In this document: positions 4,695 through 6,065 of the stretch, one piece after another
Numbering within the stretch: the first letter of the stretch is position 1
Layout of the letters: the number at the start of each line of letters is the position of its first letter
Origin: a virus
Taxonomy: Duplodnaviria; Heunggongvirae; Uroviricota; Caudoviricetes
IMG/VR virus record: IMGVR_UViG_638341086_000005
Length of the DNA: 6,065 nucleotides
Strand: one strand, 5' to 3'
Made by a program: the position numbers and the translations under genes
The notes under the pieces: generated by a model
Told to the model about the DNA's origin: nothing
Database searches by the model: none
The model's input: the letters and a program-made list of their open reading frames with translations, nothing else

Positions 4695-4967
4695 ATGGTA
4701 CATGACCGCATAGCGGAAGAACTCGAAGCGAAAGGATTTTACCGGAGGGCGGCGGCGCGATGGGGTGAAGTCATGATGCTGGTGGAGACAGACAAGGAAC
4801 GGCATCACATCACGATGCGACGGCTGGAATGTTCCAGGAAGGCACAGAGGCCACCGGAGCCGCCGGATAATTACGGAGACCTGAAAAAGGCGGTCGATCG
4901 CACTTATGCCGAAATGGGTATGGATGGTGCTGGTGATGAAATATGGCGAAATTACCAGGACAGATAA
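4695..4967 (+). CDS. PerC-like small transcriptional activator family protein (90 aa)
   Basis: ATG 4695 with SD GAGGGGGTGA (4683-4692) just after the ssb stop; the track's 4575 start would overlap ssb out of frame. N-terminus MVHDRIAEELEAKGFYRRAAARWGEVMM resembles, from memory, PerC-family proteins encoded by E. coli prophages. Followed by an intrinsic terminator. Confidence 0.55.
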   Translation: MVHDRIAEELEAKGFYRRAAARWGEVMMLVETDKERHHITMRRLECSRKAQRPPEPPDNYGDLKKAVDRTYAEMGMDGAGDEIWRNYQDR

Positions 4968-4973
4968 TCACAC

Positions 4974-4996
4974 AGCCGGAGCAATCCGGCTTTTTG
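4974..4996 (+). terminator. rho-independent terminator ending the rep-ssb-perC-like transcription unit
   Basis: Stem AGCCGGA (4974-4980), loop GCAA, stem TCCGGCT (4985-4991), running into a T tract (TTTTTGT) 7 nt after the TAA stop at 4965-4967. Confidence 0.65.
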
Positions 4997-5117
4997 TCAT
5001 GTTTTGTAAATTATTTGTTCGTGGTTGTTCCACGTTGTTCGCTGACCGGATCGGCATATTTTACCCGAACTGAATCATGATTATTCTCGCCCGTGGTGCC
5101 AGGACGCTGGGGCCACT

Positions 5118-5163
5118 TTCCCGCCTGTTAATGTGCTCGCCAATATTCATTACCAGGCGGGAA
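5118..5163. promoter_or_regulatory. perfect 10-bp inverted repeat TTCCCGCCTG-N26-CAGGCGGGAA in the capsid-gene upstream region
   Basis: TTCCCGCCTG at 5118-5127 and its exact reverse complement CAGGCGGGAA at 5154-5163. No following U tract, so more likely a protein-binding dyad or RNA structure than a terminator. Confidence 0.35.
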
Positions 5164-5217
5164 AATGATCGGTGCGATTGCTGATTTCCTTATGAAAAAC
5201 GGTTGAGTGTTTGCCGC

Positions 5218-5254
5218 GTCCTGGAGTTCCTTACTTAACTTCAGGACTTTTTTT
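5218..5254 (+). terminator. terminator-like hairpin plus T7 tract abutting the capsid start codon; possible attenuator / RBS-sequestering leader structure
   Basis: Stem GTCCTGGAG (5218-5226) pairs with CTTCAGGAC (5239-5247): 9 bp with one G-U. 12-nt loop. Seven Ts at 5248-5254, then ATG at 5255. The only SD-like element for the capsid gene (AGGA 5243-5246) lies in the 3' arm of the stem. Confidence 0.4.
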
Positions 5255-5986
5255 ATGCCGAGAATAATCGAATTACGCCAGCAGAAAACCGCCATTAAAA
5301 ATCAGATGCGCGACATGCTGGAGAACGCGGAAAAAGAAAACCGCAGCCTTAACGATGCTGAGGGCGCAAAATTTGACGAATTACGCGCTAAAGCTGAATC
5401 CCTCGATAAAGACATTTCCCGCCTTGAAGCCATTGCAGACGAAGAGCGCAGTAAACCAGGCAAAAACAGCCAGACCACTGACCCCGCAGAACTACGCAAC
5501 TACATTCTGACAGGTGAAACCCGCGCATTAAGTACAGGCGTTCCCGCTGATGGTGGTTATACCGTTATCCCCGAACTGAACACCGAAATCATGCGAATGC
5601 TGGCGGATGAGTCCACCATGCGCCGCATCTGTACCGTGAAGAAAATCAGCAGCAACGAGTTTAAGCAGCTTGTTTCCGCTGGCGGTGCGACCGTTAACCA
5701 CGGTGAAGAGGGTAAGACACGCGAACAGACCAGCACCCCGCAGATTAACGAGGTGAGCATTAAGCTGTATCCGGTCTATGCGTACCCGCGCACCACACAG
5801 GAAATCGTGGATTTTTCCGATGTGGACATCCTTTCATGGCTGACGGGTGAGATTGGCGACACCTTCACGGAAACCGAAGAAAGCGATCTGGTTGTGGGCG
5901 ACGGTGACAAAAAGCAAAAGGTTTTTTATCCGTACCCCGTGCAGAGAAGAACGACAAAGAGCGTGATTTTGGTACGTTGCACGTAA
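5255..5986 (+). CDS. major capsid protein, HK97-type (N-terminal ~60%; reading frame interrupted near 5909-5914)
   Basis: ATG 5255 (the track's 5207 start is a GTG inside the hairpin). N-terminal coiled-coil-like delta-domain region (IIELRQQKTAIKNQMRDMLENAEKENRSLNDAEGAKFDELRAKAESLDKDISRLEAI) followed by GGYTVIPELNTEIMRMLADESTMRRICTV, typical of HK97-fold capsid proteins. In-frame product stops at 5986, but the ORF continues in the -1 frame (see next feature). Confidence 0.7.
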   Translation: MPRIIELRQQKTAIKNQMRDMLENAEKENRSLNDAEGAKFDELRAKAESLDKDISRLEAIADEERSKPGKNSQTTDPAELRNYILTGETRALSTGVPADGGYTVIPELNTEIMRMLADESTMRRICTVKKISSNEFKQLVSAGGATVNHGEEGKTREQTSTPQINEVSIKLYPVYAYPRTTQEIVDFSDVDILSWLTGEIGDTFTETEESDLVVGDGDKKQKVFYPYPVQRRTTKSVILVRCT

Positions 5987-6065
5987 TTAAACCTTCCGAA
6001 TCTCTGGCGTGGACATCTGCGGACCCGCTGATCGACCTGAAATTTGCATTACGTAAAAATACCGC
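5909..6065 (+). other. continuation of capsid coding sequence in -1 frame (open to window end), implying a frameshift / pseudogene / sequencing indel
   Basis: From the A-rich run GACAAAAAGCAAAAGG (5906-5921) the -1 frame reads ...KAKGFLSVPRAEKNDKERDFGTLHVIKPSESLAWTSADPLIDLKFALRKNT with no stop to 6065 and E. coli-like codons. Joined to the upstream frame it gives GDGDKKAKGFLS, close to the GDG-x-KP-x-G-(I/F)-L motif of HK97-family capsids. That frame has a TGA at 5905-5907, so the switch must occur within 5908-5920. Confidence 0.45.

Follow-up and report, generated by a model that had tools for sequence, protein, structure and literature searches.

Classical attenuators (trp, pyrBI, bgl and T-box) carry three mutually exclusive helices in a 5' leader, with a terminator directly before the gene, and their antiterminator is favoured only before the 3' arm of the terminator is made. 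In the Pseudomonas aeruginosa AlpA system and the lambdoid Q systems (including Stx PR'-tR'), a promoter and an intrinsic terminator lie within approximately 160 to 200 nt before a late or lytic operon, and the P. aeruginosa AlpA-family protein is the master inducer of its element. The put RNA of phage HK022 consists of two abutting stem-loops within a few nucleotides of the transcription start, with terminators downstream. P2 Cox and P4 Vis are recombination directionality factors (RDFs) that double as transcription regulators. According to PMC7498355, RDFs act at direct repeats spaced by one helical turn, and some of them also regulate promoters, for example Apl of phage 186, with such repeats at both the attachment (att) site and the promoter. 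Each of these arrangements is matched in part upstream of the major capsid gene in the 6,065-nt stretch of Caudoviricetes DNA analysed here (IMG/VR record IMGVR_UViG_638341086_000005, hereafter the window). From position 633 on, the window shares 99% identity with an island in the chromosome of E. coli TOE17, and it is part of a capsid-forming phage-inducible chromosomal island (PICI), a phage satellite. We give about an even chance to the reading that this region controls the late capsid/packaging operon, combining an activated weak promoter with a leader RNA that holds a terminator, an antiterminator and an anti-antiterminator (Table 1).

We compared 89 distinct leaders, each running from the first hairpin (HP1) to the capsid ATG, from more than 120 related satellites. 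All 89 fold HP1, a long hairpin abutting it (HP2), a linker, and a third hairpin (HP3) that ends 4-8 nt before the ATG. Two leader types were found. Type 1 is the window version, with the hairpin GTGGTGCCAGGACGCTGGGGCCAC, which is present in 11 further viral contigs, and it carries an extra 50-nt insert with a small hairpin. Type-2 leaders share the 25-nt hairpin GTGGCACTCAGACGTGAGCCGCCAC, identical in 108 of the 109 distinct sequences among the matches listed; they were found in other E. coli satellites, Rosenbergiella, Citrobacter and Erwinia, and an IMG/VR scan with the type-2 hairpin returned at least 120 loci. In the phage database the leader occurred only in satellite-like records. The best hits among the Rfam 15 covariance models had E values of 0.1-9, far below the gathering scores, and belonged to unrelated families.

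The region 4965-5275 folds with a z-score of −5.97 against dinucleotide shuffles, and the + strand of the window leader is 11 kcal/mol more stable than the − strand. HP1 exists in two alleles only, and all nine of its pairs form in 100% of the 89-sequence alignment; between the types three pairs change in a compensatory way and one C-G pair becomes a U-G wobble, while the GACG loop is invariant. HP2 behaves differently. The initial annotation had described it as a perfect 10-bp inverted repeat that might bind a protein. The repeat is real and one base longer, TTTCCCGCCTG (5117-5127) pairing with CAGGCGGGAAA (5154-5164) over 11 bp, and with a further 5-bp extension it gives 20-nt arms that are 90% complementary, with a ΔG of −22.6 kcal/mol as RNA. 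Across the leaders, 11 of the 12 basal pairs change on both sides, with at most five pair types. The covariation score of HP2 was 0.258, compared with 0.149 for shuffles (0 of 500 reached the observed value) and at most 0.104 for slid controls. The ratio of G-U to A-C in the HP2 columns was 64:27, and RNAalifold independently recovered the HP1 and HP2 helices. Because the pairing of HP2 is kept with unrelated sequences, we regard it as an RNA hairpin constrained in structure and free in sequence, and the protein-binding palindrome falls away.

HP3 combines the form of a terminator with a buried Shine-Dalgarno (SD) sequence. Read from the sequence, its arms (5218-5226 and 5239-5247) form 9 bp including one G-U pair, followed by U7 at 5248-5254 and the ATG at 5255, as first annotated; folding with RNAfold extended the stem to 11 bp with an 8-nt loop (ΔG −14.6). 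These 11 pairs (5 G-C), the 8-nt loop and the U7 tract starting at the stem end fit an intrinsic terminator, and HP3 was the second-best terminator-like site of the window in a terminator scan. The major HP3 allele in the relatives has a ΔG of −12.7. The only SD (AGGA), already placed in the stem by the initial annotation, is paired in the minimum free energy (MFE) structure, within the 3' arm of HP3. As HP3 would act as a terminator and bury the SD, the leader is predicted to gate both read-through and translation initiation.

A repeat finder revealed a partner of the terminator/SD hairpin that the initial annotation had missed, at the apex of HP1. The segments 5099-5107 (CCAGGACGC) and 5216-5224 (GCGUCCUGG, also given as GCGTCCTGG) are perfect 9-nt complements, with 9 of 9 Watson-Crick pairs. 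GACG in the HP1 loop and CGUC in the downstream strand do not vary in any of the 89 leaders, and the pairs on either side change in a compensatory way between the leader types (A-U to G-C, U-A to C-G, A-U to G-C). This gives four invariant and three to four compensatory pairs, and 80.5% paired against 25-48% in slid controls, with all the changes falling on one type-1/type-2 split. In type 2 the complementarity runs along GGUUUCACGUCU, a segment that doubles as the HP3 5' arm. Because the alternative helix takes one arm of the terminator, it excludes the terminator, as expected of an attenuator. In simulated transcription, the MFE structure of transcript prefixes ending at 5226-5238 (−52.1 kcal/mol) is the one in which the downstream segment pairs with an opened HP1. 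Addition of the 3' arm reverses this: HP1 with the terminator then reaches −64.7, compared with −54.1 when the antiterminator is forced. The same energetic flip was observed in type-2 leaders.

From these features we propose the following scheme. On island induction, an island-encoded recombination-type protein probably binds the phased array upstream of the promoter (the TTGTAAAT box plus three TTGTTC repeats). The transcript would start at about 5093-5095 and would fold HP1, then HP2, then HP3 approximately 100 nt later. With HP1 closed as the anti-antiterminator, HP3 would form and transcription would stop one base before the ATG; any read-through RNA would be poorly translated, with its SD buried. 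Opening of HP1, or its invasion at the invariant GACG loop, would let the antiterminator form; the polymerase would then enter the capsid gene and the SD would be free. The default state in this model is probably OFF, because HP1 forms first.

Several points weigh against this scheme. The covariation between HP1 and HP3 comes down to a single type-1/type-2 split, equivalent to one evolutionary event, and the same compensatory pattern would result if one protein bound an inverted DNA repeat; two targeted IMG/VR scans for further HP1 alleles returned chance matches only. At equilibrium the OFF form is more stable by approximately 10 kcal/mol, so that some factor or kinetic effect is needed. Downstream of HP3, the U tract is missing from the majority of relatives (the 79 type-2 leaders among the 89). 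The U7/U8 tract occurs in type-1 leaders only and is specific to the Escherichia/Shigella lineage, as termination control would be, and the conserved function of HP1-HP2-HP3 may therefore not be termination; it may be translational, act on the polymerase itself, or be something else. Finally, we infer where transcription starts, 3' ends at the U tract and read-through, along with what tips the balance between HP1 and the antiterminator and the identity of the array-binding protein, for which allele clusters of AlpA and the integrase (Int) do not track the repeat class across satellites (see below).

Table 1 Features of the proposed capsid operon control region and its surroundings (window positions unless L001, the near-identical island, is named)
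Feature	Position	Strand	Remarks
PerC/PchE-family regulator gene	4695..4967	+	Pfam PF06069, E = 2.8e-43; directly 5' of the control region
Intrinsic terminator of the upstream (early) transcription unit	4974..4996	+	7-bp GC-rich stem, 4-nt loop, TTTTTG tail
Upstream site array	5002..5040	.	box TTTTGTAAATTAT plus three TTGTTC repeats, 10-bp phasing
Predicted −35, TTTACC	5060..5065	+	TTT at −33..−31 from HP1 among the most conserved columns (105 sequences)
Predicted −10, TATTCT	5082..5087	+	T-A-T-N-N-T at −11..−6 from HP1 near-invariant
HP1, 5'-terminal hairpin	5093..5116	+	GUGGU-G-CCAG-GACG-CUGG-G-GCCAC, ΔG −15.6
Antiterminator strand A (HP1 apex)	5099..5107	+	CCAGGACGC; duplex ΔG −21.7
HP2, long hairpin abutting HP1	5117..5164	+	inverted repeat of the initial annotation
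Small linker hairpin	5167..5186	+	ΔG −5.2; only in 165-166-nt type-1 leaders
Antiterminator strand B	5216..5224	+	GCGUCCUGG; overlaps 7 nt of the terminator 5' arm
HP3 plus U7	5218..5254	+	terminator-like hairpin, also sequesters the SD
Shine-Dalgarno AGGA	5243..5246	+	8 nt before the ATG, in the HP3 3' arm
HK97-type major capsid gene	5255..6065, runs off the window	+	Pfam PF05065 and L001 annotation
attL-arm arrays (two)	L001 5257-5275 and 5330-5370		5' of int
attR-arm array	L001 19562-19596		beside the attR core

We aligned the upstream regions of 105 distinct loci backwards from HP1. They lined up without gaps and with fixed spacing, and the conserved columns correspond to a putative sigma-70 promoter with a 16-nt spacer between −35 and −10, which would place the transcription start at about 5093-5095, in the first bases of HP1. 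The promoter matches 8 of 12 consensus positions and is below the threshold of the promoter scan, which therefore missed it; by this match the predicted capsid promoter is weak and probably requires an activator. The initial annotation had also placed a terminator further upstream, and the terminator scan recovered its stem (4974-4991) and T run (ΔG −12.0), which are kept in type-1 relatives. Two promoter-region segments, of 8 nt (5051-5058, with 5254-5261) and 11 nt (5079-5089, with 5259-5269), are perfectly complementary to 16 nt around the capsid start codon, and neither pairing is conserved in Sakai/Shigella. In the MFE fold of the entire intergenic region, the 11-nt pairing is the closing helix. 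We rejected it as a leader element: it is broken without compensation in Sakai/EDL933 (T5081G) and Shigella (C5259A), and since 5079-5089 lies inside the −10 element, it would be absent from RNA begun at the putative promoter. Both pairings could form only in upstream read-through RNA, where they would be predicted to block capsid translation. A 35-codon open reading frame (ORF, 5077-5184) is not a leader peptide, because its ATG sits within the conserved −10 region and many relatives lack it (ATA, ATC, CGT or others); it also has no SD. On inspection, a sigma-54 promoter or an RfaH ops element in HP1/HP2 did not fit in spacing and key bases, and the features concerned are not conserved. A cos/pac site or a replication origin is opposed by the position and by the strand-specific RNA covariation.

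The initial annotation had stacked three signals in one leader, the first of them TGTTC at 5016-5020, 5026-5030 and 5036-5040. The repeats and their exact 10-bp spacing are read directly from the sequence, and the window has a single TGTTC-N5-TGTTC-N5-TGTTC, where chance would give 0.01 (200 shuffles). They lie 5' of the putative promoter, however, as DNA sites at approximately −80 to −55, the three repeats at about −78, −68 and −58, outside the RNA. The true repeat unit is TTGTTC, and a fourth phased TTGT is found within the near-invariant box TTTTGTAAATTAT (5002-5014), so that the array centres are at about −87 (box), −76, −66 and −56 from the putative start. In the 105 upstream regions, the near-invariant box (TTTGTAAATTAT) stands at a fixed distance from HP1 and is followed by three T-K-T-W-C units with 10-bp phasing, which are kept in both repeat classes; in the other class, A replaces T at the fourth position of every unit (GTAC/TTAC). 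The dyad CGTGG-TTGTT-CCACG (5020-5034), in which the repeats had been described as embedded, is present in the window and is incidental, because it is not conserved in relatives (CCAGG and others).

Phased TGTTCG arrays recur in both att arms of the TOE17 island (3 matches against 0.04 expected), so that at least three direct repeats about one helical turn apart, the arm-type arrangement, are found at the promoter and in the att arms alike. This suggests that the array is read by a recombination-type DNA-binding protein. A doubled GGTGTAGTYAAT motif adjoins every att-arm TGTTCG array on both sides of the island (L001 5237-5400 and 19562-19720); of the att-arm motifs, the capsid promoter repeats the TGTTCG array only. 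The core att sequence of the TOE17 island is TGATAGTTATYTATCA.

The AlpA-family RDF/regulator is the most plausible candidate reader of the array, because the repeats are RDF-like, PICI induction requires the island-encoded AlpA (10.1101/2022.09.08.507074), and overexpression of the island's own alpA alone yields capsids in EcCIEDL933 (10.1101/2025.02.11.637232). The AlpA of the near-identical island L001 belongs to PF05930 (1.7e-16) and is encoded outside the window; no AlpA gene is visible within it. An integrase arm-binding domain is equally possible as the reader. Both repeat classes are found alongside the same AlpA and Int clusters, and several AlpA clusters share a single repeat class, so that the clusters do not pin down the array-binding protein; alleles of AlpA, Int, PerC, RgdR and the phrog_1957 protein showed no clean association with the repeat class. 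A host factor could also read the array. The GTAAA box followed one turn on by TGTTC/TGTAC (5006-5020) resembles the tandem direct-repeat sites of response regulators of the OmpR/PhoB family, and the CpxR consensus is GTAAA-N5-GTAAA.

The proposal of a gated, structured leader stands, with conservation in more than 120 satellites, covariation and a built-in antiterminator partner in its favour, and the helper-phage trigger that had been attached to it is unnecessary. As EcCIEDL933, which makes capsids on alpA overexpression alone, has the same leader as the window, a helper-phage factor is not required. We rejected helper-phage Q or N as triggers on the same grounds.

The alternative that survives best, although we consider it unlikely, is processive antitermination, in which polymerase from this promoter becomes resistant to terminators through AlpA (as with Pseudomonas AlpA or lambda Q) or through HP1-HP2 (as with put); both the leader terminator and a post-capsid terminator would be bypassed, and the complementarity between HP1 and HP3 would be secondary. 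Pseudomonas AlpA is of the same Pfam family as the island AlpA (PF05930) and is an antiterminator that bypasses an intrinsic terminator just 3' of its target promoter (PMC7969949), which agrees with capsid production on alpA overexpression. Between the capsid and protease genes (L001 13463-13484) stands a GC-rich hairpin, in many cases GGGGC-UUCG-GCCCC, followed by a U-rich tail, and a terminator-like hairpin is found at equivalent positions in 54 of 73 related loci. The operon would thus have terminators to bypass, and processive antitermination stays a serious rival. Inspection by eye, however, showed nothing like the Pseudomonas AlpA element GGGACG-N5-GGTA, which the E. coli protein may not share, between the predicted −35 and −10; most leaders have no leader terminator; and the complementarity of the HP3 5' arm to HP1 in two differently wired leader types would be left unexplained.

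In the RNA-based form of this alternative, HP1-HP2 would be a second, unrelated put-like RNA family that docks on the host polymerase and gives resistance to the leader and post-capsid terminators, which we regard as improbable. HP1 and HP2 are two abutting 5' stem-loops, like putL (approximately 70 nt, two stem-loops just 3' of PL; PMC9378689), and the invariance of HP1 (24-25 nt) across genera, despite diverse island regulators, would be explained by a conserved host polymerase that reads it. If this is true, only transcripts born at this promoter would express the whole 8-kb capsid/packaging operon. A profile of the 89 leaders (nhmmer) found no match in the complete HK022 genome, however, and short-word blastn gave matches at chance level only (10-13 nt, best E 0.067).

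We find it equally improbable that the leader is a passive part of the mRNA, with HP1 shielding the 5' end from decay, HP2 as a spacer or processing site, HP3 tuning translation, and U7 as an A/U-rich spacer between SD and ATG. Stabilising 5' stem-loops of the ompA type are well established, and HP1, without a 5' overhang, begins at the putative +1; most relatives lack the U tract, and an SD-ATG spacing of 8 nt is normal. Yet the invariance of HP1 and of the GGUUUCACGUC / GCGUCCUGG segment far exceeds what a generic stabilising hairpin needs, the 9-nt perfect complementarity with compensatory change is not accounted for, and a hairpin of −14.6 kcal/mol over the sole SD of the most abundant virion protein needs a means of release.

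A stand-alone small RNA (sRNA) of approximately 160 nt (5093-5254), with its own promoter, an end at U7 and a function in trans, the alternative raised in the initial annotation, is more doubtful still. In type-1 leaders the promoter, structured RNA and intrinsic terminator make a complete unit, and PMC7547250 gives StxS as a precedent, a terminated late-leader RNA that acts as an sRNA at the Stx phage late promoter. Against this, type-2 leaders lack the terminator yet keep HP1-HP2-HP3, and the 3' hairpin, which includes the capsid SD and stops 0 nt short of the ATG, points to a role in cis. The supplements of PMC4104026 list no Hfq-bound sRNA at the Sakai locus, which is weak evidence because the cells were uninduced, and no sRNA or transcript map of the Sakai/EDL933 locus was found in the literature searched.

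Least probable is a DNA-level explanation, in which HP1 and the CGTC segment are inverted operator copies at +1 and +125 bound by one dimeric or looping protein and HP2 is a cruciform or protein site: the palindromic HP1 does overlap the putative start, a typical repressor position, and two inverted copies of a motif that changed in concert would look like covariation, but the free sequence and kept pairing of the HP2 stem are unlike any protein site, and the + strand G-U wobbles (HP1 U-G in type 1, HP3 G-U), the 11 kcal/mol strand asymmetry and the excess of G-U over A-C in the HP2 columns speak for RNA.

We also examined the genomic setting of the control region. The early genes of the TOE17 island encode int, an AlpA-family protein, an icd-like protein, DUF4222 (RgdR-like), a DUF927 primase, SSB and PerC, and the late genes encode, in order, the HK97-type capsid, protease, portal, head closure, connector, HNH, TerS and TerL. 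This gene order is that of capsid-forming PICIs such as EcCIEDL933 (10.1101/2022.09.08.507074), and the major capsid gene is the first in the capsid/packaging operon. The copies in Sakai (Sp7) and EDL933 have a matching intergenic region with 97% identity. At least 80% of the intergenic region is present in approximately 359 of 5,426 complete E. coli genomes, and in all of these a 'phage major capsid protein' gene adjoins it.

In the window, the capsid frame is broken at 5986, while it is intact in TOE17 (385 aa); compared with TOE17, one A each is deleted from the A runs at 5908 and 6054, and either these homopolymers were misread in sequencing or the gene has recently become a pseudogene. 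The gene directly upstream of the control region carries the annotation PerC family in TOE17 and pchE in Sakai. It is intact in the window, with TAC at 4742, where TOE17 has an in-frame TAG and an annotated pseudogene. Positions 1-632 do not align to the otherwise 99%-identical TOE17 island, and the early region is thus mosaic. A YlcI/YnfO-like DUF3950 ORF lies at 310-507 on the − strand, and 1236-1535 encodes a DUF4222 protein akin to RgdR (ECs1581), which is encoded on OI-51 and regulates the LEE1 promoter (PMC3378721). In related loci, a phrog_1957 protein of 74-82 aa without assigned function is usually encoded directly 5' of the leader, as at L003 5771-5995 (ECs1589); its gene is absent from the window, which has the PerC gene next to the leader instead. 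Another E. coli satellite (L002 7197-10040) has the same upstream repeat array and a type-2 leader, with a ProQ/FinO-domain protein encoded just 5' of the leader, and downstream only a 499-aa capsid-like gene and one small ORF, with no packaging genes.

Compared with the described systems, the locus differs in several respects. Unlike classical attenuators, it has no conserved leader peptide, no recognisable ligand or tRNA domain and no Rfam match; the anti-antiterminator role falls to a near-invariant hairpin right at the 5' end, and most relatives have the hairpin set without a U tract. The candidate leader terminator is at about +125 to +161, close to the position in the AlpA and Q systems, whereas the candidate protein sites are phased repeats at −55 to −90, with none of the Pseudomonas −35/−10 kind, and the leader RNA is conserved and structured, with an internal antiterminator. 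The likeness to put RNA is one of architecture only, as there is no significant sequence similarity and the second stem-loop is hypervariable here. In comparison with regulatory RDFs such as Apl, the sites here are putative and AlpA clusters do not co-vary with the repeat class. We regard the region as one of a family of late-operon control regions of capsid-forming satellites that has not been described before and whose mechanism would be of a known kind (an attenuator-type leader and an activated promoter). The invariant hairpin at +1, the two wirings of one competition and the site array shared with the att arms are unusual.

Capsid-forming PICIs make their own capsids and take only tails from phages, and we found no description, in the literature searched, of how their capsid/packaging operon is switched on. 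The control region described here is present in the prototype EcCIEDL933, and it offers a putative promoter, a candidate array and a predicted RNA switch with named nucleotides. An array common to the att arms and the late promoter would link excision to late transcription. The leader constitutes a widespread structured RNA family outside Rfam, with more than 120 IMG/VR loci and, for the type-1 form, about 8% of complete E. coli genomes, and is a possible marker for such satellites. If the trigger is AlpA, or an RNA acting on polymerase, it would represent a new antitermination system in satellites.

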